Shown here piece by piece: positions 3,709 to 34,758 of a stretch of 41,013 nucleotides of DNA. The number at the start of each line of letters is the position of its first letter. The first letter of the stretch is position 1. A program made the position numbers and the translations under genes. The stretch is from UHGV virus genome UHGV-1836508; one strand, 5' to 3'. The notes under the pieces were generated by a model. The model searched no databases, had not been told where the DNA came from, and was given only the letters and a program-made list of their open reading frames with translations. The stretch is from a virus.

Positions 3709-6700
3709 TCAAAGCCGACCAATCCTCACTCGAAGGACATTATTGTCATCATAAACGTCAATCCTCTGACCATTTATAACCAATCTCCCATTGCCGCCAC
3801 TATTGCCGTTGATCTCAAGCGTTCCATTTTTACCAAATCGCCATCCGGCTCGTCCGCTTACGAAGTTTGTTGATTGCAAGTCACCTACCTTTGCATTTGT
3901 GATAGTACCATCCTTAATATACGCACCATTCATGTATGCAACGCTGTTTTCGATAACAAATGGTGTGGTGATCTTTCCGTTAACTGAGTTAACTAGACCA
4001 AATCGATCTGCTTGCACCAAAAACTGGGAAAGCCCCGTGGTGTCAATTCCAAGCGCAATACCTGCGACATATTTTTGCCCACCACTTGTTGACGTTTCCA
4101 TCTTCAACGTCCACGCGGTTGAAACCTTTTTGTTAGTATCAGCAATAGCAGTTGCCTGCTCTTGAATTGTCGCTGTATTTCCATCAACTGATGCTTTTAA
4201 GGTGTCAATTCGTCCACTTAGAGCATTGTCGGCGTTTGTGCGCACAGTCGCCTCAGACGTAATCGCGGCATTAATATCTTTGCTCGTTTGCGCCTGTAGA
4301 TTAGTGATGCTAGAAGCCAAAGCCGAATCAGCGTCAGTTCTGGCTTTCGTCTCTTCTGCTACAGCCGCCTTAATATCTTTACCCGTCTGGCTCTTCAATG
4401 TGGTTATCTGTTGTGCTAAAGATTCATCAGCAGTTGCTCGGGCAATTTTTTCTTCAGATATAGCTGCACTAATATCGCCTTCAATTTTGGCTTGTAACGA
4501 TAGTATTTCTTTTGAAAGTGCTTCATCGGCACTAGCTCGTGCCTCTTGTTCACTCACAATTGCGGCAGAAATATCATCGTTAATCTTTGATTCAAGTTTG
4601 GTGATTCTGCTTGCAATAGCATTATCAGCATCTACACGAGCCGTTGTTTCTTCAGTGATTGAAGCTCTGATATCCTCATTTATTTCAGCGCGAATTTCCT
4701 CCATTTTCGTAGCCATTGCAGATATATCGTCTGCAAAAGCCTTCTGAGTTGTGGTGATCTTCGCATTACTCACCATCTGCTTGTGCTGATCTTCATCCTG
4801 ACGCAAAGCAAGATCGATGTTTGTTTTAGCCAATGCCTCAATGTTTGTCGTAACTTCGGCACTAGAACGTTCAACTTCAGCCACGGTTTTTTTCATTTCT
4901 TCAATGGTGGCTAAACTGCTATCTACAGTTGACTTCATCGCCTCGATTTCTTTCGCGTTTGCCAAGTCACCCTCAACTCGTGCTTCACGCTCCTCCGCAA
5001 TTAAAGCCGATGAATTGTCAAGTGCTGCATTTGCCGCCTCAACAGCTCCAGCTACAGCTTTACCCTGCTCTGATACAGTTTCCTGCAACTGAATTAAGGC
5101 AGCGTTAGAGTTTGCAACCTCCTTAAGTGCGTCTTCCACCTTGCTGACAGTACCGGAAACTTCCGTTTTAAGATTGTTTTGAGCTTCTTCAAGCCGCTGA
5201 TCGGCATCTGTAAATTTGTCATCGAGGATTTTCAGACTTTCTTCCATCTGTTGATAGATGGAATCCACCGCCTCCTGAGATACTTTTGAGTCGATTTCCT
5301 CAAGTAAAGTCTGGCCAAGTTCAGAAGACGTAATTTTGCCTGTCAGGAACGACAGCACATCGCGAGTCGTCGCCTCTGTACCCAAGTTTGAGTTCGGAGG
5401 ACTCAACATACCGCGCTTGTTTGACGCACGAACCCAGTAATACCACGTTTCGCTATCCCCAAGACCAGCATGTGTAAAGGTGGTGCTTGCAGACTCTGCG
5501 ATCAGTTTCGCTGTATCCAGATTGTTGGTCTGGGATGCGTAAACATTAATGTGATCAAGGTCTACCGAATCTGGATTAACCCAATTCAGTATCACATTAC
5601 GATAGTCTCCAACGGCTGTTAATGACGTTGGGGCATCTGGCGGTGTCATTGTGCCCAGCACCTGATAAACGGTACTGATAATCTCTGTTTTTTTACCGTT
5701 GAATGAAACCGCATACAGCTGGAAGTCGTAGCGTCCATTCTCCGCGACATTAACGATTTCGTATTGCTCTTCGGTTACACGCGCCGATTGCCAGTTCGAT
5801 ACATTGTTTGCATCAGAACGTCGCCAACTGATCCAATACTCTGGAGATTTCCCTTCCCATGTTGCAGTCAGTTTTACTGACAGGTTGCCCGGGCTTGAGA
5901 GATAAGTCCCTTCAGTGATTTGCAAATTAGACGGCTTGGAATAAGTCGGGTCCAATACCGTCGTATTCTGCGGGATAAGCGTTGCACCATTGTCGATCGC
6001 CTCATATTTAGACGGATTGTTCTCAACAGCGGTGATGTCAAAGCTACCCGGCGTTTCCCCCTGTGCTATGTTAACAATGCGAACGCGCATAGGTTCGAGG
6101 TCTGGTTCTGTAATAGTCCAGACGCCGTTCAAAACAGGCGTTTCAGCCGAAGACAGGGCTTTTGAAAACGTAACTTTTGTTATATTTTCGCCAGTTTCAA
6201 GAACATCGCGTTCAACGATTTTGCCTTCCTGATTCAGTATTCGAATAAAGCAGCCGCCTTTGGCTAACGACACAGGCGCATCGAGTGTGACGCTGTTTTT
6301 GGTAAACGCCACAATTCGACCTGAGTTACGTTTGCCTGCGCGATATTTGTTCTGAATCAGAACGGTTTCACCAGGCATCAAAAATGACGCGTCTAAGCCG
6401 GCAGTAAATGTAATTACATCCGACTCCATTCTGGCGGTATATAAAAGCCACAAACCAACTCGGTGAGCCTGCCCTCGGCTTGTACAGCCAAATGCCACGA
6501 CTTCTGTCTTACGCTCACCATAACGGCGCATTGCGTCCTGATCTTCAACGTACTCGATGTTTTGCTTATAACCGTCCTCCTTGTTGTTGTAGGTTACGAG
6601 CGCAACGGATGGGCGATCTTTACGCGCAGAACCTTTATAGGTAAACAATCCATCTTTGACGTTAGAGTTGGTAAACATCATTACCGGATCTGACGGGCTA

Positions 6701-7869
6701 TCCTGCATGATGTTAACCATGCCACCAGCCCAAAACACCATGCCGCGGAATGCTCCAGCAATATCCTGAATTAGTCGGTATGCGTCCTGTCGACTGGTAA
6801 TCTGCGTATTGATTGCAAAACGTTTCTCTTTGCCACCAAAGCCATCATCAACCTCTTCGTCACAATATCGACCGATCTGGTACAGCTGGCCGAGGTCAAT
6901 CATGGACTCTGATACAAATTGGCCAAGCCCATATCGTTCATTCGTTAACAGGTCGAAAAGAATCCAGGCTGGATTGGATGAAGACAGCAGCTTAAACGTA
7001 CCGTCCCATACTCCAACGTAAGTGTTACTGGATTCGTTATAGTTTGATGGCACACGAATTTTTAGGCCACGCACCAGATAAGAGCGAGAAGGCATAGTGC
7101 TGCCGAACTGCTCAGAATTAACCTTCAACCCCACCAGCACAGAGTTTGGGTAGTTCATCGGTGTATCGACAATCTCACCTATTGAATCCACCCATGTATC
7201 GTTATAGAGATACTGGCTGCTGTTATCATCGGTAATACGGACTACACGAACCTTGTATGCGCGTCCAGGCTTAGGCAGCTTCAGCTCATAGCTACGGTAA
7301 TAAACACCTGTCTTCTTTGCTGTTAGCTTAATGCCAACGCTTTTTTCACCTTCTGCGACCACATCTACAAATGTTGAGTCGCCATTTGCTATCTGGAACT
7401 TGTACTCAACGCTTGTACCGTTCGTGTCACCAGTTTTTTTATCTATGCTTCGCAAAGAAGGAAACTTCATGATGACACGAACCCGATCAGCTTCATCGTT
7501 ATCGATTGAAACCGTTACATAATGTGTTTTTTTTAACTGGATATTGACGGATTTAGGCGTTTCAACGAAATCAAAGCCAGACATTGGAGTCTGGTCTTGC
7601 GAACCGTCGCGAAAATCCCATGTGATTCCGCTGAAGTTGGAGGAACCGTCTTCATTTACAATCGGCAGATCGTCGATAAAAATAGATCTTGCGCCATTTA
7701 CTAAGCCGCCAATTACCCCTTCCCCAAGAAGATCGAGGATAGCGGCCATTGCACGAGAATTTACGGTATCGTCGGCTTCAACCGGTGTACGGCTGGAGCT
7801 TTTGCTGCTTTTTTTACCACCCGCACCGGCAATAAACAGCGGTAGCTTTTTCTTCTTGAACTGTTCCAT
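3709..7869 (-). CDS. central tail fibre / host specificity protein (lambda gpJ-like)
   Basis: About 1386 aa, position after I-K-L-M, gpJ-like N-terminal and C-terminal regions (…AYIKDGTITNAKVGDLQSTNFVSGRAGWRFGKNGTLEINGN…). Track start at 7875 is TTG; first ATG with SD is at 7869. Confidence 0.9.
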   Translation of the reverse strand: MEQFKKKKLPLFIAGAGGKKSSKSSSRTPVEADDTVNSRAMAAILDLLGEGVIGGLVNGARSIFIDDLPIVNEDGSSNFSGITWDFRDGSQDQTPMSGFDFVETPKSVNIQLKKTHYVTVSIDNDEADRVRVIMKFPSLRSIDKKTGDTNGTSVEYKFQIANGDSTFVDVVAEGEKSVGIKLTAKKTGVYYRSYELKLPKPGRAYKVRVVRITDDNSSQYLYNDTWVDSIGEIVDTPMNYPNSVLVGLKVNSEQFGSTMPSRSYLVRGLKIRVPSNYNESSNTYVGVWDGTFKLLSSSNPAWILFDLLTNERYGLGQFVSESMIDLGQLYQIGRYCDEEVDDGFGGKEKRFAINTQITSRQDAYRLIQDIAGAFRGMVFWAGGMVNIMQDSPSDPVMMFTNSNVKDGLFTYKGSARKDRPSVALVTYNNKEDGYKQNIEYVEDQDAMRRYGERKTEVVAFGCTSRGQAHRVGLWLLYTARMESDVITFTAGLDASFLMPGETVLIQNKYRAGKRNSGRIVAFTKNSVTLDAPVSLAKGGCFIRILNQEGKIVERDVLETGENITKVTFSKALSSAETPVLNGVWTITEPDLEPMRVRIVNIAQGETPGSFDITAVENNPSKYEAIDNGATLIPQNTTVLDPTYSKPSNLQITEGTYLSSPGNLSVKLTATWEGKSPEYWISWRRSDANNVSNWQSARVTEEQYEIVNVAENGRYDFQLYAVSFNGKKTEIISTVYQVLGTMTPPDAPTSLTAVGDYRNVILNWVNPDSVDLDHINVYASQTNNLDTAKLIAESASTTFTHAGLGDSETWYYWVRASNKRGMLSPPNSNLGTEATTRDVLSFLTGKITSSELGQTLLEEIDSKVSQEAVDSIYQQMEESLKILDDKFTDADQRLEEAQNNLKTEVSGTVSKVEDALKEVANSNAALIQLQETVSEQGKAVAGAVEAANAALDNSSALIAEEREARVEGDLANAKEIEAMKSTVDSSLATIEEMKKTVAEVERSSAEVTTNIEALAKTNIDLALRQDEDQHKQMVSNAKITTTQKAFADDISAMATKMEEIRAEINEDIRASITEETTARVDADNAIASRITKLESKINDDISAAIVSEQEARASADEALSKEILSLQAKIEGDISAAISEEKIARATADESLAQQITTLKSQTGKDIKAAVAEETKARTDADSALASSITNLQAQTSKDINAAITSEATVRTNADNALSGRIDTLKASVDGNTATIQEQATAIADTNKKVSTAWTLKMETSTSGGQKYVAGIALGIDTTGLSQFLVQADRFGLVNSVNGKITTPFVIENSVAYMNGAYIKDGTITNAKVGDLQSTNFVSGRAGWRFGKNGTLEINGNSGGNGRLVINGQRIDVYDDNNVLRVRIGRL
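4230..4700. repeat. five tandem 93-nt (31-aa) repeats in the coiled-coil part of the J-like gene
   Basis: Peptide units DI(S/K/N/R)A(A/S)I…AR…AD…L…I…L recur five times (DISAAIVSEQEARASADEALSKEILSLQAKIEG and variants). Confidence 0.6.
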
Positions 7870-7886
7870 GTTCAAAAAATCCTTGT

Positions 7887-28875: not shown

Positions 28876-30435
28876 ATGACTGTTCGGATTGTATCTAACG
28901 CAGTAAATGCGCTTATTTCTGGCGCAGATGACAAGGTAAAGCAACTGGTGCAGCAAATGTTGAGCTACGAAGTCGAGACTGGCGACTGGAAGGGCACAAG
29001 CACGATGTTCAACTGGAGTAAAAACTCGTTCCCTGCTGGCTTTGCCAAGCCTGTAGCGGCGAACTTGAACAAGGCGGGCATCAAATGTGTTCATATCCGC
29101 AAAGACAAAGCCCCGGCGCTTGGTAAACCAAATCCGGCGGTTAACCCATTCCCATACAATCCTGATTATGCGTATCAGGATCAGACTGTGGAAACACTGG
29201 TTCGAGAGGGAATGATGATTGCGCAGATCGCTACTGGTGGCGGGAAATCTAACGTTGCCTGCAAAGCAGCTGCACGTATCGGTCGAATGACATTATTTTT
29301 AACAACCCGCTCTGTTCTGATGTTTCAAATGGCCGAAAACTTCCAGAGATCCATCGACTACCGCGCCGAAAATGGCGAACCGTGGTTAAAAGACCAAAAG
29401 GTTGGAGTCATTGGCTCGGGTGAGTTCCAGGTATCACGACATATCAACGTCGCTACAGTTCAAACTCTTGCAAGTTTCCTCGAAGAACCACCACGCGATG
29501 CAACACCAGATAAAAAGAGCTACCACCTCAAACGTCGGGAGTTGGTGAAACGCTTCCTTTCAAGTGTGTCTCTGCTTATTCTGGAAGAAGCGCATGAGTC
29601 TTCAGGTTCTAATTTCTATGACATTGCCAGATTATGTGTGAACGCAGACTATCGTCTGGCGCTTACAGCCACGCCGTTCATGAAGGATTCGACGGAAGCC
29701 AACATGCGCCTGATGGCGGTGGCCGGGCGAATTGAAATTAAAGTCACAGAAAAGTACCTGATTGATCGAGGCATTCTGGCAAAGCCGTACTTCCTTTATC
29801 ATAAAGTTGCCTACAAGCCAGACGAGGCCAGAATCAAGGCCGAACTTGCCAACAAACACCTCAATTTTAGAGTTGGTATGAGCACCGCCTACCAAAAGGC
29901 TTATCAGTTGGGGATCGTGTATAATTTGGGACGTAACGAGGCCATAGTGCGCGAGGCATTGCTTTATAAGCAACATTCACTCAACTGCATGACTCTGGTT
30001 CGTCTTAAACGCCACGGGCAAATCCTGATGGAGATGATGAAGGAGTCAGGTCTTAAAGTTGATTTCATCTATGGGGAATCTAACCAGACGACAAGGCAAG
30101 CAAAGCTGAATAGTTTAGCGTCTGGTGAAATAGATGTTTTAATAGGCTCGACTATTCTGGATGTCGGTGTTGATGTACCAAGCGTTGGTGCGGTCATTCT
30201 GGCTGGTGGTGGAAAAGCAGAAGTTGAAATGAGGCAGCGTGTCGGTCGTGGCTTACGAGCCAAAAAAAATCAGGCAAACGTGTGTTTTATCACTGATTTC
30301 ATTGACATTAGCAACAAATACCTGTTGTCTCACTCTTATGAGCGAAAACACATCATCGACACCACACCTGGCTTTGCAGAAGGTGTATTGCCTATTGATG
30401 GAGCATTCGATTTTGGAGTTCTGAAACGAGATTAG
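28876..30435 (+). CDS. superfamily 2 (DEAD/DEAH-type) helicase
   Basis: Motif I IATGGGKS, motif II LLILEEAHE, motif III LTATPF, motifs V/VI …DVLIGSTILDVGVDVPS…QRVGRGLR; strong SD TAAGGAAAGAGG. Confidence 0.85.
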   Translation: MTVRIVSNAVNALISGADDKVKQLVQQMLSYEVETGDWKGTSTMFNWSKNSFPAGFAKPVAANLNKAGIKCVHIRKDKAPALGKPNPAVNPFPYNPDYAYQDQTVETLVREGMMIAQIATGGGKSNVACKAAARIGRMTLFLTTRSVLMFQMAENFQRSIDYRAENGEPWLKDQKVGVIGSGEFQVSRHINVATVQTLASFLEEPPRDATPDKKSYHLKRRELVKRFLSSVSLLILEEAHESSGSNFYDIARLCVNADYRLALTATPFMKDSTEANMRLMAVAGRIEIKVTEKYLIDRGILAKPYFLYHKVAYKPDEARIKAELANKHLNFRVGMSTAYQKAYQLGIVYNLGRNEAIVREALLYKQHSLNCMTLVRLKRHGQILMEMMKESGLKVDFIYGESNQTTRQAKLNSLASGEIDVLIGSTILDVGVDVPSVGAVILAGGGKAEVEMRQRVGRGLRAKKNQANVCFITDFIDISNKYLLSHSYERKHIIDTTPGFAEGVLPIDGAFDFGVLKRD

Positions 30436-30437
30436 TT

Positions 30438-30716
30438 ATGAGCGAAAAGAAAACAACTTATTGCCAGGTGGCATTGTCTGATAAGGCCAATGAAAAACTT
30501 GGAAAATTCCAAATAAAACTCAAAGAGAAAAAAATCAAGATGTCTAAGGCTGAAGTTATCAATGCCATTCTGGAGACGATGACTATGGCTGAATTTGACA
30601 AAGTCACATCTGCCGTTGGGGTTTCCGCTAAGACGCGTGAGAAAATCATGCGCATCTATGAAAACTCCAATATGACAAAAAAAGATCTAGAGGAAATACT
30701 GAGCAGGTTGCCGTAA
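30438..30716 (+). CDS. hypothetical 92-aa protein (Lys-rich)
   Basis: ATG 2 nt after the helicase stop, so likely coupled; no recognisable motif. Confidence 0.5.
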   Translation: MSEKKTTYCQVALSDKANEKLGKFQIKLKEKKIKMSKAEVINAILETMTMAEFDKVTSAVGVSAKTREKIMRIYENSNMTKKDLEEILSRLP

Positions 30717-30748
30717 CATTTCATATTTACCCCCTATCTACTAATTCT

Positions 30749-30784
30749 ATGATGTGCTCACTTGTTAGAAAGGAGCACATCATG
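30749..30784 (+). other. 11-bp perfect stem-loop sequestering the SD and start codon of the next gene
   Basis: ATGATGTGCTC (30749-30759) pairs with GAGCACATCAT (30773-30783); loop holds AGAAAG of the SD; the ATG at 30782 is in the stem. Confidence 0.55.
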
Positions 30785-31348
30785 AGTTGGTTAAAAGAAT
30801 TATCATTTGTTGACACCACTGGCGCTAAGAAAAATCATTCTTTCTGGAAAGTCAGCGATCCTTCTGATTTTCTTGTTGGTGCTAATGCTGCTTTTGAATT
30901 GCTTAACTTTTATCAACGTTATCCAGAAATGAAACACAGTCCACTCCTGTACAGAATAACAAACGATATGAATAGGTCTGGTTTATTATCAAGTGAGTCA
31001 GCGAAAGGCTTTTTTAGCAAAATTACGCCTCACATATCATTCGATGCAACAAACGAAATTGATTATCTATCCACGAAATCTCAAGAACAATTATCTGTAC
31101 CACCTGAGAAAAAAGAAAGACGAATTGCCAGCATTGAAAATATATCGAAAGAGCTTCGCACAACAACGTTGAGGCTGCTGAACTTTCTTACGCTGCTTAA
31201 TTGGATAGATGATCAAACATTGATTCCATCAACAGATGCGTTGGATAACAGAGTCCTTAGGCTGAACAAAAAATCGCAATTTGGTTTTGTGTTCACCAAA
31301 AAAGGTGAAGATTTAATCAAAAGAAAATATAGATTATTGAATGATTAA
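30782..31348 (+). CDS. hypothetical 188-aa protein (AT-rich accessory gene)
   Basis: SD AAAGGAG 7 nt upstream of the ATG at 30782; the track start at 30749 lacks an SD. Confidence 0.55.
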   Translation: MSWLKELSFVDTTGAKKNHSFWKVSDPSDFLVGANAAFELLNFYQRYPEMKHSPLLYRITNDMNRSGLLSSESAKGFFSKITPHISFDATNEIDYLSTKSQEQLSVPPEKKERRIASIENISKELRTTTLRLLNFLTLLNWIDDQTLIPSTDALDNRVLRLNKKSQFGFVFTKKGEDLIKRKYRLLND

Positions 31349-31354
31349 TAGTCT

Positions 31355-31384
31355 ACATGCAGGTGTATGAGAGCACCTGCATGT
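31355..31384 (+). terminator. stem-loop terminator after the 188-aa gene
   Basis: ACATGCAGGTG-tatgagag-CACCTGCATGT directly after the stop; T-run is interrupted. Confidence 0.45.
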
Positions 31385-31637
31385 GACATTCATCACATTT
31401 TTGAATGTATATACCTTCGGCTGAAAAAGATCTTGATAGGCTAAATGATATTTGTAGGCTTCGCCTCCGAAGAAATTCGGAGGATATATGCGACAATTTA
31501 TAAAAACGTGTGACCTAAGAAATATAGTAGATGATATTGCATGTGATGAAATTAGCAAAAAAGAGAAGAACAAAAACGCCAATTAACGCTATCTACCTAT
31601 AAATCTGAAGAGTTCAATAGGATGCATATCTGAAACA

Positions 31638-31673
31638 CGCCCTCGACAATACCAAAAAGATTTGTCGAGGGCG
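31638..31673. terminator. bidirectional hairpin terminator between convergent accessory genes
   Basis: CGCCCTCGACAA-taccaaaaagatt-TTGTCGAGGGCG, 12-bp perfect stem. Confidence 0.55.
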
Positions 31674-31732
31674 TCGGGCTTTCCCTATGTCTGAACGATT
31701 AAATTTTACAGCAATTAAATATTTTGTATATG

Positions 31733-32533
31733 TTATTCTTCTGGTGGCACGACAAAATCATCGAGCTTATTCTTTTCGTCTCGAAGCAACTTGATTTCTT
31801 CTTCTGTTATACATTTGTCATAATCTGTTTGTTCAGAATGGCACAGTGTAACCGCGAATGGATAGCCGGTATAGGACAGTCCCCTAACAGGTTCTAGTTC
31901 ACCGTTGTCTTTTTTCCTAAATTTGTAAAAGTCAGGAGTGTCATAATTGGTGACGCTAACAAGAGCATATTTATCATTTTCTCTTGCATACACTTCACTA
32001 ACACCTCTCGATTCGCCCAACTCTCTACTCACATATGTCGAATCACTTGCTGCATCAAACACAGCCTGACCTAATGGAGTTTTTTTTAAATCATCTATTT
32101 TCTCTTTTTCCTTCCTGATTTTAGATTCGTTTTCCAGATAAAGTTTCACACCGTTTTCTTTACATGCTAGATTTTGGCGTTCAAAACGTAATCGTTCTCT
32201 TGCCGAGTTGGCACTTTTATCCATTGTAACGAATACAATCGGGTTACGTTCACGAACATCAAAGATGTGCGCATTGAATGCGGTCGCACCTGTATAGGCG
32301 TTCAAGACGTTTTTGCCATTCACCTCTCCACATACCATATATGAATAGCTATTTTCACCTAACTGAATAGCTCGCATATTCGTGAACCGACCAGCATCAG
32401 GATCTAGCAGTGTAGAGCGAATATCCTTTTCAACTAGATCTATGGCTCGCTCTTCATCAGAATCACAACCTGTTAATAGTAAAGCCGCTATTAACAATGC
32501 TAATGAGTATTTTTTATTCACCCCATTCTTCAT
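31733..32533 (-). CDS. lipoprotein (signal peptide with lipobox LTGC), stand-alone accessory gene
   Basis: N-terminus MKNGVNKKYSLALLIAALLLTGCDSD; own divergent promoter region and downstream hairpin; AT-rich. Confidence 0.7.
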   Translation of the reverse strand: MKNGVNKKYSLALLIAALLLTGCDSDEERAIDLVEKDIRSTLLDPDAGRFTNMRAIQLGENSYSYMVCGEVNGKNVLNAYTGATAFNAHIFDVRERNPIVFVTMDKSANSARERLRFERQNLACKENGVKLYLENESKIRKEKEKIDDLKKTPLGQAVFDAASDSTYVSRELGESRGVSEVYARENDKYALVSVTNYDTPDFYKFRKKDNGELEPVRGLSYTGYPFAVTLCHSEQTDYDKCITEEEIKLLRDEKNKLDDFVVPPEE

Positions 32534-32635
32534 GAAACTTATTCCATAATCAATTTTTGGTGGAATGTACGGTTAGTCTGTCTACGCATCATAGAGATGT
32601 ATATAATGACCAAAAAAGACTTAAAAAGGTAGACT

Positions 32636-33157
32636 ATGGTTAAAGACATCACCTACGGCATACCGGCTGAAGTCTGGCCGCGAGACTACGAACATGCTGA
32701 AAACATACTTATGTTCTGGCGGAAGAACAACATTCCTGTAAGAGTCACGCTTGAAGACGGTCAGGTGTTTTGCATGTACGTTCAGGGGACAATGCCTTCC
32801 CGCAATAAGCTAGATTTATGCCCGCTTCCATATGATAAAGAAAATCGTATAAGACTCCCACTTGAGCGCATTAGCACAATTGAATCAGGTGTAATCGATG
32901 GCATTGCTCGCGAGTTCAAAGGTAGGCTAACAATACATCCAGACTATGTTGACAATCAGCCATCACGCCGTGACTTTTTTGCGATATGTCGCAAGGCTTA
33001 TCAAAACGACCAATCTATAAGGGTCTACATGACAGACGGTCGTGAAATAGAAGGGGTGTCAAGAGGCGTTGATGCTTGCCAGGTCACTCTTAAATTAGAA
33101 GACGGCAGAAAAATACTTGTTTTCTTCGATTGGGTTGAACGAATCCTTCCATTTTAA
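32636..33157 (+). CDS. hypothetical protein with two tandem Rof/YaeO-like repeats (possible Rho modulator)
   Basis: Internal duplication …VRVTLEDGQVFCMYVQG…RIRLPLERISTIE / …QVTLKLEDGRKILVFFDWVERI resembling the LTLELKDGE…RLDKITSF pattern of Rof; TATAAT at 32602-32607 upstream. Confidence 0.35.
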   Translation: MVKDITYGIPAEVWPRDYEHAENILMFWRKNNIPVRVTLEDGQVFCMYVQGTMPSRNKLDLCPLPYDKENRIRLPLERISTIESGVIDGIAREFKGRLTIHPDYVDNQPSRRDFFAICRKAYQNDQSIRVYMTDGREIEGVSRGVDACQVTLKLEDGRKILVFFDWVERILPF

Positions 33158-33168
33158 ATCTATAAGGG

Positions 33169-33198
33169 TAATAACCGGCTAAGCCCGGTTATTATTTT
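33169..33198 (+). terminator. intrinsic terminator
   Basis: TAATAACCGG-ctaagc-CCGGTTATTA followed by TTTT. Confidence 0.7.
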
Positions 33199-33339
33199 AC
33201 ATGCCATTCATTTAAAACTCTTTCAATGTCACTCTGTATAAATATATAAGGTTAAAAGCCCGAATTGATTATTTATTTAGGGAACACCTTCGACGATCTC
33301 GCTTTTATTTCTAGGACTTTCATCCCTGCAGAAAATTTA

Positions 33340-33367
33340 AAAAAAATACTTGCAATCTTTTTTCACG
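33340..33367 (+). promoter_or_regulatory. sigma70-type promoter (TTGCAA - 16 bp - GATAAT) with upstream A-tract
   Basis: -35 at 33340-33345, -10 at 33362-33367, A-rich block 33321-33338; flanked by inverted repeat ttcgacgatctcgctttt / ctcgtcgaaagcgag. Confidence 0.55.
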
Positions 33368-33452
33368 TATCGATAATTGAACTCGTCGAAAGCGAGCTAG
33401 CTAACGACAGTAAAAAATAAATTCATTTTAATTTTTCGTAAGGATGTCCATC

Positions 33453-34103
33453 ATGACTAACATTATCATTTCTAAAAAGTCCATCATTGAAGCTGCTGCC
33501 ATTGTATCCGACGAGCTGCGCGAAAAAGCAGATCTGGCAACTCAAACATATAACGAACATTATAAAAATGGTACGCACACAAAAGCAGACAAAGCAAATA
33601 TGCAAGCTGCGACCACCAAACTTGCTTACTTCATCAACAACGTCGTAAACGCAGTAGAAGACGAAAAATTGTGCTCTGTTTTCTACTATGCGATCAAAGC
33701 AAGCAAACAAGCGCCAGAAGTATTTTTCCGTGATGCAATGACTAATAGTTATTCTCTGGAAAAACTGGTTTATCTGGTTAAATCCATTAAAGCTGGAAAG
33801 TGTGTTTATTCCGTCGCTGATATGTCCGGATCTCGTGTATTCGCATTAATCGATATGATTAACGACGAGATCGAGACGTTCACAAATGGCGCTGTTTTCG
33901 ATTTAATGAATGAAGCGAAAAAAGCCAACGAAATAAAATTAGACGCAGGATACACTCAAGCCAACCAGCTTATCAATCTTTGCGAACGTCTTGGACTTGT
34001 TGAGAAAGTCAAAGGAATGGGAAGCGCAAAAGCTGGTACGCAGCAATATCGCTTTATTAAAAATGATTTCTATAACTATCTGGCTGATGCTTTCAAAGCG
34101 TAA
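33453..34103 (+). CDS. hypothetical 216-aa protein
   Basis: SD AAGGA before the ATG at 33453; own promoter and terminator; no motif recognised. Confidence 0.55.
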   Translation: MTNIIISKKSIIEAAAIVSDELREKADLATQTYNEHYKNGTHTKADKANMQAATTKLAYFINNVVNAVEDEKLCSVFYYAIKASKQAPEVFFRDAMTNSYSLEKLVYLVKSIKAGKCVYSVADMSGSRVFALIDMINDEIETFTNGAVFDLMNEAKKANEIKLDAGYTQANQLINLCERLGLVEKVKGMGSAKAGTQQYRFIKNDFYNYLADAFKA

Positions 34104-34116
34104 TTAATGGAATCTG

Positions 34117-34137
34117 GCGCCCACTATGGGCGCTTTT
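34117..34137 (+). terminator. hairpin terminator (partial, read-through to next gene likely)
   Basis: GCGCCCA-cta-TGGGCGC followed by TTTT, then SD AAGGAG of the next gene. Confidence 0.6.
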
Positions 34138-34150
34138 AAGGAGCTTAATC

Positions 34151-34381
34151 ATGTTTATTCTTATCGCTGGCGTTAACGTGCGCAATGAATATTTTGTTAA
34201 TCGCATCGCTGGGATCGCTGGTTACGCTGGGCGCTCAGTCGAGTTTATCGATGAAACAACGCGTAAAATTGATTTATTGAGCGACCAGGAGCGAAAAAAA
34301 GCAGACGTGAACGACGCTGATATATTTTTAATGTTAAAAGCGTTTGTAGAAATGGGATTTAAAATCAGTTTACACAAATAA
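34151..34381 (+). CDS. hypothetical 76-aa protein
   Basis: SD AAGGAG 7 nt upstream; followed by a strong terminator. Confidence 0.5.
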   Translation: MFILIAGVNVRNEYFVNRIAGIAGYAGRSVEFIDETTRKIDLLSDQERKKADVNDADIFLMLKAFVEMGFKISLHK

Positions 34382-34387
34382 AATCGA

Positions 34388-34410
34388 GCGCCCATAGTGG
34401 GCGCTTTTTT
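34388..34410 (+). terminator. intrinsic terminator
   Basis: GCGCCCA-tag-TGGGCGC then TTTTTT; exact reverse complement of the hairpin at 34117-34133. Confidence 0.8.
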
Positions 34411-34434
34411 CGTTTCCAATACTCCCACCATAAC

Positions 34435-34456
34435 GCGCCAATGATGGCGCTTTTTT
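34435..34456 (+). terminator. second tandem intrinsic terminator
   Basis: GCGCCA-atga-TGGCGC then TTTTTT; further weaker GC hairpins follow to about 34580. Confidence 0.65.
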
Positions 34457-34758
34457 ATTGTCTTTGACTCACTCCAACAACATAAAAATAAGCGCCAAAA
34501 TAACGCCATAGACGCGCTTTTATATCCTTACCAGTACATACCCATTACTTAGCGCATTAACGCGCTTAAATCGCGTTATATTGCGTTATGGTGTATGGTT
34601 AATCATTGGCTTTTATTCTTGCTATGTGATCCGCGTTTATTTGTCGGCGCAGATCGGCATTTTGTGTTGTTCTGTGTCCGCTCGCATATGATTGCCACGT
34701 TGGGCAACGTGTACGCGCTTACAGTGATTTACCCACGGATTCACATAATCACATAGCG

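Follow-up and report, generated by a model that had tools for sequence, protein, structure and literature searches.

A lipoprotein moron of the SSU5-like phage-plasmid Cyrano, very probably expressed in lysogeny, as a candidate phage-entry exclusion factor

The DNA analysed here, referred to throughout as the window, is the whole 41,013-nucleotide stretch of virus genome UHGV-1836508, and the gene under study lies on its minus strand at positions 31733 to 32533. Over about 1.8 kb around this gene the window shares 99.9% identity with Escherichia phage Cyrano (108 kb; OV696614.1), in which the gene is CYRAN_115 and carries the deposited annotation "Putative membrane lipoprotein". Cyrano is pLF82, the SSU5-like phage-plasmid of adherent-invasive E. 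coli (AIEC) strain LF82 (PMC9928086). Phage PhiR41_1 is 92% identical over the same ~1.8 kb, and the match to Salmonella phage SSU5 near CYRAN_115 is restricted to the adjacent FljA-like regulator gene. It is concluded, with high confidence, that CYRAN_115 is a lipoprotein moron expressed in lysogeny. That the gene belongs to Cyrano and is annotated as a putative lipoprotein is already known; new here are its lysogeny expression, overlooked by a stationary-phase screen, its two-module architecture, the family membership of its N-terminal module (N-module), a predicted anchoring at the inner membrane, and evidence against a receptor-blocking model of the Llp/Cor kind. The parts of the gene and its flanking elements are as follows.

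31733 to 32533, minus strand: coding sequence (CDS) of the lipoprotein precursor, CYRAN_115; 266 aa from the ATG at 32533, with the stop codon TAA at 31733-31735.
32465 to 32533, minus strand: signal peptide with lipobox L20-T21-G22-C23 (lipobox codons 32465-32476; Asp24 is +2 and Ser25 is +3).
32159 to 32464, minus strand: N-module, residues 24-125; modelled as a helix on a four-stranded antiparallel sheet, cystatin/NTF2-like, phrog_2320-type.
32084 to 32158, minus strand: charged helical connector, residues ~126-150, where the orthologues differ most (28-60% identity).
31736 to 32083, minus strand: remainder of the CDS after the connector, up to the stop codon.
32534 to 32635: divergent intergenic region of 102 bp (GC content 0.32), common with the FljA-like gene and presumed to be the promoter region.
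31637 to 31674: perfect stem-loop with 13-nt arms (31637-31649 and 31662-31674), 59 nt after the stop codon.

An earlier reading of the window, made from the letters alone and called here the sequence-only reading, had proposed a 266-aa product with a classic lipoprotein signal, and the ATG-started open reading frame (ORF) was found exactly as described. The product matches phrog_20234 over its full length (E 1.5e-187). Its N-terminus, MKNGVNKKYSLALLIAALLLTG|C23, satisfies the PROSITE lipobox rule. Lysines at positions 2, 7 and 8 precede an uncharged hydrophobic core, LALLIAALLL, and then L-T-G-C with Cys at position 23, an arrangement (MKNGVNKKYS-LALLIAALLL-TG-C23) that fits the lipoprotein pattern ([LVI][ASTVI][GAS]C, Cys at 15-35). 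The lipobox Cys is invariant across all nine full-length homologues. On these features the precursor would be exported, lipidated at Cys23 and cut by signal peptidase II; the mature protein has 244 aa and a mass of 27.9 kDa. The start codon itself is ambiguous, and the signal peptide is predicted to be the same either way. An alternative GTG at 32521, behind GGAGG, would give 262 aa, and the orthologues from Cronobacter, comparison locus L008, Enterobacter and a second E. coli clade were called from the codon aligned with it; in one close allele this codon is GAG, and the upstream ATG is retained. Ratios of nonsynonymous to synonymous substitution (dN/dS) of 0.10-0.25, determined by the Nei-Gojobori method for five orthologues, indicate a real protein under purifying selection and no chance ORF.

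CYRAN_115 appears to form a monocistronic, AT-rich cassette, consisting of presumed promoter region, ORF and stem-loop, inserted beside the FljA-like gene. Positions 1-25.4 kb of the window hold the Cyrano tail, head and terminase genes on the minus strand and are followed by a ParB/ABC/helicase block; from about 30.4 kb onwards there is a low-GC run of small genes. The base composition of CYRAN_115 (GC 0.393, and 0.323 at third codon positions, GC3) deviates from that of the window as a whole (0.460), of positions 1-28800 (0.474) and of the core genes used for comparison (GC 0.46-0.50, GC3 0.43-0.54), and the genes on both sides of it (30749-31348 and 32636-33157) are on the plus strand. In both respects, AT-richness and opposite orientation, the gene was as the sequence-only reading had presented it. 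The divergent promoter that had been placed at 32534-32635 stood in part: the intergenic region is AT-rich and local initiation of transcription is implied, as set out below, but no sigma-70 consensus is recognisable in it. The sole -10-like element is a weak GATTAT at ~32546-32551 on the minus strand, aligned with GATAAT of one orthologue and without a consensus -35. The Cronobacter and L008 orthologues have 11/12 promoters (TTGACA-N16-AATAAT or GATAAT) 20-23 nt before the start. At the other end, the downstream hairpin is real, with a folding z-score for the 3' region of -4.35 and none of 200 shuffles equally stable. Its description as bidirectional was unsupported, since a U-run is found on neither strand and the convergent gene has a hairpin of its own at 31355-31384. 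As the homology with PhiR41_1 starts at window position 31640, that is, at the hairpin, this boundary together with the convergent gene's own hairpin favours the stem-loop as a 3' element of the lipoprotein gene itself. It is best read as a terminator-like element and as the left boundary of the cassette common with PhiR41_1. Unrelated stem-loops stand directly after the stop codon in all five orthologues inspected (5/5), and that of L008 is a canonical terminator with a GC stem and a T6 run, GGGGCTTTCGCCCC-TTTTTT.

Expression was assessed from strand-resolved RNA-seq of LF82 (GSE154648), as re-analysed in S1 Table of PMC9928086 and given here as log2(fpkm+5), where fpkm is fragments per kilobase per million. 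Replicate values for CYRAN_115 were 4.98 and 4.68 in stationary LB, 7.87 and 8.17 after 1 h in Dulbecco's modified Eagle medium (DMEM), 9.21 and 9.15 after 6 h in DMEM, 9.43 and 9.24 after 1 h in macrophages, and 8.67 and 8.78 after 6 h in macrophages (PMC9928086). The RNA thus increased about 15-22-fold from stationary LB to DMEM or the intramacrophage state. Terminase, capsid and tail genes mostly remained at ~3-5 in LB, DMEM and macrophages at 1 h, the 6 h macrophage sample being excepted, and capsid, tail and lysis genes were mostly at 3-6 in growing, uninduced cells (PMC9928086). Of the 123 genes of Cyrano, CYRAN_115 was, by our own count in S1 Table, at about rank 23 in LB, about rank 9 in DMEM at 6 h and about rank 12 in macrophages at 1 h. 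Values for the two neighbours were ~5.7 (convergent gene CYRAN_116) and 6.9-8.1 (FljA-like gene), and those for CYRAN_45, the lysogeny repressor, were 6.6-10.3 (PMC9928086); the RNA therefore falls from 9.2 in CYRAN_115 to 5.7 in the next gene. Given the position of the gene on the opposite strand and RNA levels unlike those of either neighbour, local initiation of transcription is implied, and the proposal that the gene is independently transcribed was supported: it behaves as its own transcription unit, expressed from the dormant element. The rise was matched in DMEM and macrophages and parallels that of other lysogeny-expressed genes (the repressor, ParA and CYRAN_30), for which reasons it is regarded as an effect of growth state and not as macrophage-specific.

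Full-length homologues of CYRAN_115 form nine clusters at 90% identity in 5.8 billion proteins, and their contigs are all no longer than ~110 kb. The gene was found on 61 plasmids in PLSDB (Escherichia 44, Enterobacter 9, Cronobacter 6, Salmonella 1), with a Klebsiella record matching partially, in the N-module only. All but one of these carriers (60/61) are non-mobilizable, and those listed are mostly ~100-126 kb in size, a few E. albertii records being ~62 kb. In 5,426 complete E. coli genomes the gene was present on 39 plasmids and on no chromosome. As an SSU5-type helicase is encoded on 216 plasmids in the same genomes, some 18% of E. coli SSU5-like elements (39/216) carry this allele group, in agreement with the earlier designation of the gene as accessory. 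It is missing in SSU5 and in loci L010 and L011. At every locus inspected the lipoprotein gene is divergent from the FljA-like gene and lies between it and the pair formed by the helicase gene and a gene for a 92-aa protein. The interval from the 92-aa gene to the FljA-like gene (30717-32635) is a cargo hotspot, as determined by comparison with L003, L010, L011, L008 and L012. In SSU5 and L011 the slot holds an unrelated DUF2846-like lipoprotein (phrog_890), in L010 a 196-aa secreted protein (phrog_18942), and in L011 and L008 small Cys-rich secreted proteins. In PhiR41_1 (PV340561.1) a gene at L002:5628-5981 on the plus strand encodes a 117-aa phrog_2320 protein (E 5.8e-24) with an ordinary signal peptide; it is convergent with and directly adjoins the lipoprotein gene, which places two paralogous envelope modules in one slot. 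The slot cargo of plasmid L012 includes an HNH endonuclease gene.

In the definition of Juhala and Hendrix, as summarised in PMC3594210, such a unit is termed a moron, and CYRAN_115 shows the patchy presence, the deviant base composition and, in the data of PMC9928086, the expression from a repressed prophage that go with the term. The screen for morons by the authors of that study used stationary LB alone, with a cut-off of 5x the median (PMC9928086). In that condition CYRAN_115 reaches 2.9x the prophage median (28.6 vs 9.8). An arms-race signal, in the form of faster evolution than that of the neighbouring genes, was looked for and not seen: CYRAN_115 (75, 54 and 40% identity in three comparisons) has diverged about as far as the FljA-like and 92-aa genes on either side of it, and its dN/dS is low.

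An AlphaFold2 model built on a nine-sequence alignment reached a mean predicted local distance difference test score (pLDDT) of 84.6 and a predicted template modelling score (pTM) of 0.74. It places a helix at residues 25-39, four strands within 49-104 and helices at 111-124 and 129-149, followed by a second unit with helices at 153-171, strands at 176-215 and, at the C-terminus, a short helix and a strand. A separate model of the C-terminal half gave a pLDDT of 85.7. According to the full model, CYRAN_115 consists of two successive helix-on-sheet modules of cystatin/NTF2-like fold with a helix linking them. An origin of the two by internal duplication was considered and dropped, as hhalign gave it a probability of 0.5% and hence no evidence. 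The invariant cysteines are C23, C68, C124, C231 and C241. The pairs Cys68/Cys124 and C231/C241 presumably form one disulfide in each module, which, together with the single lipidation site, fits an oxidising periplasmic location. Structural matches came at the same Z score from cystatins, latexin, fetuin and an aspartic-protease inhibitor and also from NTF2, VirB8, SnoaL and the CaMKII hub.

The N-module belongs to a large family. Residues 7-151 of CYRAN_115 align with positions 19-165 of the 171 in the phrog_2320 profile (E 1.4e-19), and a profile search of 1.84 billion representatives returned 2,166 clusters (50% identity) at E<=0.001; nearly all of the 150 clusters listed are proteins of 100-150 aa aligned to residues ~7-125. 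Among 71 aligned members, 62 fit the lipobox pattern, most of the others having an ordinary signal peptide or a membrane anchor, and D44, P45, F50, C68, G69, N72, K74, N75, G78, Y80, G82, F86 and C124 are conserved in at least 90%. The family motif, DPxSAxF ... VCGxVNxKNxxGxYxG with the Cys pair, is present in CYRAN_115 as LLDPDAGRF...VCGEVNGKNxxNAYTG. For the N-module itself, scans of the 71 relatives with Pfam, NCBIfam and PADLOC gave no match beyond the level of the signal peptide, and in a few relatives the N-module is joined to a peptidoglycan-binding domain, SPOR or SH3_3. For the C-terminal module (C-module), profile searches, including one with this module only, found no homologue outside the nine clusters, and it appears from these searches to be unique to the CYRAN_115 lineage. 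Sequence searches of the PDB with CYRAN_115 and with the family profile gave no match, and literature searches found no paper on the protein or its family.

A tblastn search with a central member of the N-module family matched 80 phage records, 60 of them from Gordonia phages, where the match is similarly placed. The relative in Gordonia phage Zirinka is gp16 (L016:2965-3282), encoded in reverse orientation with the tail assembly chaperone gene on one side and the tape measure gene on the other, the interval that is the position of the founding moron, HK97 gene 15 (PMC3594210). In the P2-like Salmonella phage SEN4 the relative (SEN4_30, L015:2992-3375) lies between ogr and int on the opposite strand, and in Pseudomonas phage AUS531phi an N-module-SPOR fusion (L017:2986-3639) lies between tail genes K and I. 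Judged by their gene neighbours, these three relatives are in moron-type positions of temperate phages.

In E. coli, CYRAN_115 is probably anchored at the inner membrane. Asp at +2 is a LolCDE avoidance signal (PMC5727369), and the first helix of the model begins 2 residues after Cys23, leaving a linker of 1-2 residues. It is from the Asp and this near-absent linker before the first helix that retention at the inner membrane is predicted (PMC5727369; compare bioRxiv 10.1101/2021.01.05.425367). Asp is found at +2 in the Escherichia, Enterobacter and Salmonella alleles. The lipidated protein would stay on the periplasmic face of the inner membrane and fold into two disulfide-stabilised modules, of which the widespread N-module may serve as a generic envelope-anchoring or binding module and the lineage-specific C-module may give specificity. 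Both modules would bar an incoming phage in the periplasm of the lysogen after receptor binding, at penetration by the tail tip or tape measure or at DNA entry, by a logic like that of HK97 gp15, P22 SieA and TP-J34 Ltp and not as an outer-membrane receptor plug. As a whole, a lysogeny-expressed lipoprotein moron that blocks phage entry at the periplasm is tentatively preferred as the best explanation. Phage-entry exclusion as the biological role of the protein is considered possible, on arguments that are circumstantial: the slot tends to collect genes for secreted proteins and lipoproteins, and N-module relatives sit in moron sites that include the HK97 gp15 position. A target acting after adsorption is argued from the independence of the gene's presence from the allele of the tail gene J, which is described below.

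Several observations weigh against this explanation or one of its parts. CYRAN_115 is absent from the authors' Table 1 of morons, its 2.9x in stationary LB falling below their 5x cut-off. Consensus promoter scans found no sigma-70 match of at least 8/12 in 32534-32635, and the hairpin at 31637-31674, which carries a U-run on neither strand, was not called by the terminator scan. Scans of CYRAN_115 with Pfam, NCBIfam and PADLOC gave nothing beyond matches at the level of the signal peptide, and the names of cluster members in public sources are all "hypothetical". In the orthologues from Cronobacter, L008 and P0006 the +2 residue is Lys, so an inner-membrane location would not be family-wide, and a mechanism relying on that location is weakened. 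Finally, the strong conservation of N72, K74, N75, G78, Y80 and G82 suggests a conserved ligand and not a fast-evolving phage target.

The sequence-only reading had drawn on the logic of T5 Llp and of Cor from phi80 and N15, to which Rtp45 may be added, namely that an outer-membrane lipoprotein plugs or allosterically closes the receptor used by the phage itself. CYRAN_115 has in common with these proteins that it is a phage lipoprotein expressed when exclusion is useful, and the Lys+2 of Cronobacter-type orthologues is compatible with outer-membrane sorting, yet the model was not sustained and is now considered very improbable. The only match to the Cor family, PHROG 1119, has an E value of 0.31 and covers residues 8-26, that is, the signal peptide only. 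At 27.9 kDa the mature protein is about four times larger than Llp and Rtp45 (~6-7 kDa; Rtp45 ~6 kDa, PMC12685063), a disparity that the sequence-only reading had itself remarked on and that the 244 aa of the mature protein confirm. Asp+2 predicts retention at the inner membrane, and the gene, at ~24 kb from J (3709-7875 in the window) and the tail-fibre genes, does not adjoin the receptor-binding genes. The remaining evidence came from a comparison of alleles, in which the Cyrano J C-terminus (3709-4500, minus strand) was used as the J tip query in megablast searches against E. coli plasmids. This region was at least 99% identical in 33 plasmids, of which 32 lacked the lipoprotein gene and one carried it, although the test is imperfect in that a single clonal plasmid accounts for 29 of the 33 and the comparison covered the J tip and not the side fibres. 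Conversely, in 33 of the 39 lipoprotein carriers the J tip was too different to be detected by megablast, and the same lipoprotein allele (95-100% nucleotide identity) was found with many different J C-termini. That presence of the lipoprotein might track the receptor-binding allele was thus rejected, and the comparison speaks against exclusion directed specifically at the receptor that the element itself uses. The J C-terminus is highly mosaic: 49 of the 216 E. coli SSU5-like plasmids match it by megablast, in identity classes of 99%, 84%, 82% and 80%. The 29 identical plasmids, of 106,011 bp and from strains Esc1-Esc29 and CNR20191027, look like one clonal or outbreak series.

Apart from receptor blocking, the protein might have no anti-phage role and act in host fitness or lysogenic conversion, altering the envelope to the benefit of the host (stress, serum, macrophage survival or adhesion) as lambda Bor or Lom do. 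This is rather unlikely, though morons often benefit their hosts (PMC3594210), many isolates of E. coli, Enterobacter and Cronobacter from clinical and animal sources harbour the gene on plasmids, and the conserved N-module motif suggests a host ligand. The ~15-22-fold rise of its RNA in LF82 would be in keeping with such a role, but the level in DMEM without macrophages (9.2) equals those in macrophages (9.3 and 8.7), as expected for growth state, and searches of Pfam, NCBIfam and PHROG revealed no similarity to Bor, Lom, TraT or virulence families. Alternatively, the cystatin-like modules could bind peptidoglycan or inhibit a muramidase, peptidase or toxin, giving an immunity-like protection from lysis from without or from contact-dependent or colicin-type attack. 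The true inhibitors among the top structural matches (cystatins, latexin, fetuin and the aspartic-protease inhibitor), the SPOR and SH3_3 fusions of relatives, the strongly conserved surface motif and the disulfides would suit a binder of this kind. It is nonetheless judged improbable, as the fold is generic (NTF2, VirB8, SnoaL and the CaMKII hub match equally at the same Z), the signatures of MliC, PliG, Ivy and the cystatin QxVxG are lacking, no Pfam model matches and no cognate enzyme gene adjoins. A late phage function, as a virion, assembly or spanin-like lysis component, is essentially excluded. A weak match to an Rz-like spanin PHROG (E 0.021, residues 11-37) covers only the signal peptide and lipobox, and Cyrano has a separate lysis cassette elsewhere, with holin, endolysin, Rz and Rz1 as CYRAN_22-25. 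Moreover, the RNA of CYRAN_115 reaches log2 8-9 in growing, uninduced cells, in which most values for capsid, tail and lysis genes lie at 3-6, and the gene is missing in ~80% of related E. coli phage-plasmids as well as in SSU5. Homologues as structural components of the virion had been named at the outset as part of what would speak against the sequence-only reading; the homologues proved to be envelope proteins bearing signal peptides.

As a moron that may act in the periplasm after receptor binding, CYRAN_115 is close in concept to HK97 gp15, the first named moron and an inner-membrane superinfection-exclusion protein. Both are stand-alone, compositionally deviant units expressed from the prophage, encoding an envelope protein at the inner membrane (predicted for CYRAN_115), with a proposed action after the receptor step. 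However, CYRAN_115 would be a lipid-anchored soluble two-domain protein of 28 kDa, in contrast to the small, YebO-like gp15, which is integral to the membrane; it is unrelated to gp15 in sequence and fold and encoded at a different genome site, in a plasmid-maintenance and accessory region. No homology to HK97 gp15, P22 SieA or T4 Imm and Sp was found with PHROG, Pfam or PADLOC, and the comparison is one of mechanism only. The closest topological analogue of the predicted arrangement is Ltp of TP-J34 from Streptococcus thermophilus, which blocks DNA injection and is likewise a prophage-expressed, membrane-tethered multi-domain lipoprotein that faces outward from the cytoplasmic membrane. Ltp is composed of helical repeat domains and comes from a Gram-positive host, whereas the alpha+beta modules of CYRAN_115 are cystatin/NTF2-like. 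Llp, Cor and Rtp45 resemble it as phage lipoproteins with a Sec/signal peptidase II signal that act from the periplasmic side, and differ in their fourfold smaller size, in the Asp+2 and independence of the J allele seen for CYRAN_115, and in the absence of homology. Lambda Bor, which confers serum resistance, is also a prophage-expressed lipoprotein moron and illustrates a possible role in host fitness; it is, however, a 97-aa outer-membrane lipoprotein of an unrelated family with no homology, and neither the TraT nor the Bor family was among the Pfam and PHROG matches at E<=1. The Bor gene of the LF82 prophage Perceval rises from log2 ~4 in LB to 8-11 in DMEM and macrophages (PMC9928086). 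The phrog_2320-type lipoproteins have the N-terminal module of ~100 residues, the motif and the Cys pair in common with CYRAN_115, and are typically single-module proteins of 110-150 aa, to which CYRAN_115 adds the connector and a second module. SSU5_122 (phrog_890, DUF2846-like) occupies the same cargo slot between the 92-aa and FljA-like genes and is also a lipoprotein, but is unrelated in sequence, has 140 aa and is co-oriented with its neighbours; as it belongs to a different PHROG, it was rejected as a homologue.

More broadly, the N-module may define a very large unnamed family of lipid-anchored envelope domains that is repeatedly carried as a lysogeny-expressed moron in temperate phages of Proteobacteria and Actinobacteria, with CYRAN_115 in a new and widespread class of periplasmic (or outer-face) genome-entry blockers independent of the outer-membrane receptor, a generalisation that is offered as speculative and unlikely. 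SSU5-like phage-plasmids are common in clinical Enterobacteriaceae, as seen in the 216 among the 5,426 complete E. coli genomes searched, and are known carriers of resistance genes, and CYRAN_115 belongs to the more highly expressed genes of Cyrano when AIEC LF82 is growing or inside macrophages. If the protein does exclude phages, the range of such strains open to therapeutic phages and the competition between phage-plasmids would both be affected; if it is instead a host-fitness factor, it bears on AIEC biology. As the N-module family recurs in moron positions of unrelated temperate phages, it also presents an inexpensive target for functional screening.

The genes and elements next to the lipoprotein cassette are listed below.

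32636 to 33157, plus strand: divergent neighbour, FljA-like "repressor of phase-1 flagellin" (PF03614, E 1e-80).
30782 to 31348, plus strand: convergent neighbour, cytoplasmic protein phrog_13473, 188 aa (199 aa from an upstream ATG, ORF 30749-31348).
31355 to 31384: perfect 11-bp hairpin of the phrog_13473 gene, after its stop codon.
31349 to 31732: non-coding spacer of 384 bp between the convergent genes, with a palindrome at 31403-31418.
30438 to 30716, plus strand: gene for the 92-aa protein CYRAN_117 (phrog_1466), directly downstream of the helicase gene.

The gene for phrog_13473 accompanies the lipoprotein gene in seven of eight locus types (Cyrano, PhiR41_1, L009, L008, L012, L013 and L014, but not Cronobacter) and is missing from three loci without the lipoprotein gene. 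On this co-occurrence its product is a possible functional partner of the lipoprotein. A scan of 30400-34600, including the spacer at 31349-31732, with Rfam gave no match. The spacer to the left of 31640 is absent or replaced in PhiR41_1, and a doubtful 82-aa ORF with a TTG start lies within or near it on the minus strand (31334-31582).

The FljA-like protein is full length, with a weak Hfq-like match at residues 122-164, and RNA of its gene is present in the lysogen (log2 7-8 under DMEM and macrophage conditions). By repressing flagellin translation, such a protein encoded on a phage-plasmid could change host motility or flagellin display; its gene is regarded as context to CYRAN_115. CYRAN_117 is on the authors' list of morons, with 12x background in LB and log2 ~9-10 in DMEM (PMC9928086). 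Unlike that of the lipoprotein gene, its position is kept in all SSU5-like loci seen, and its sequence identity among them is just 33-58%.

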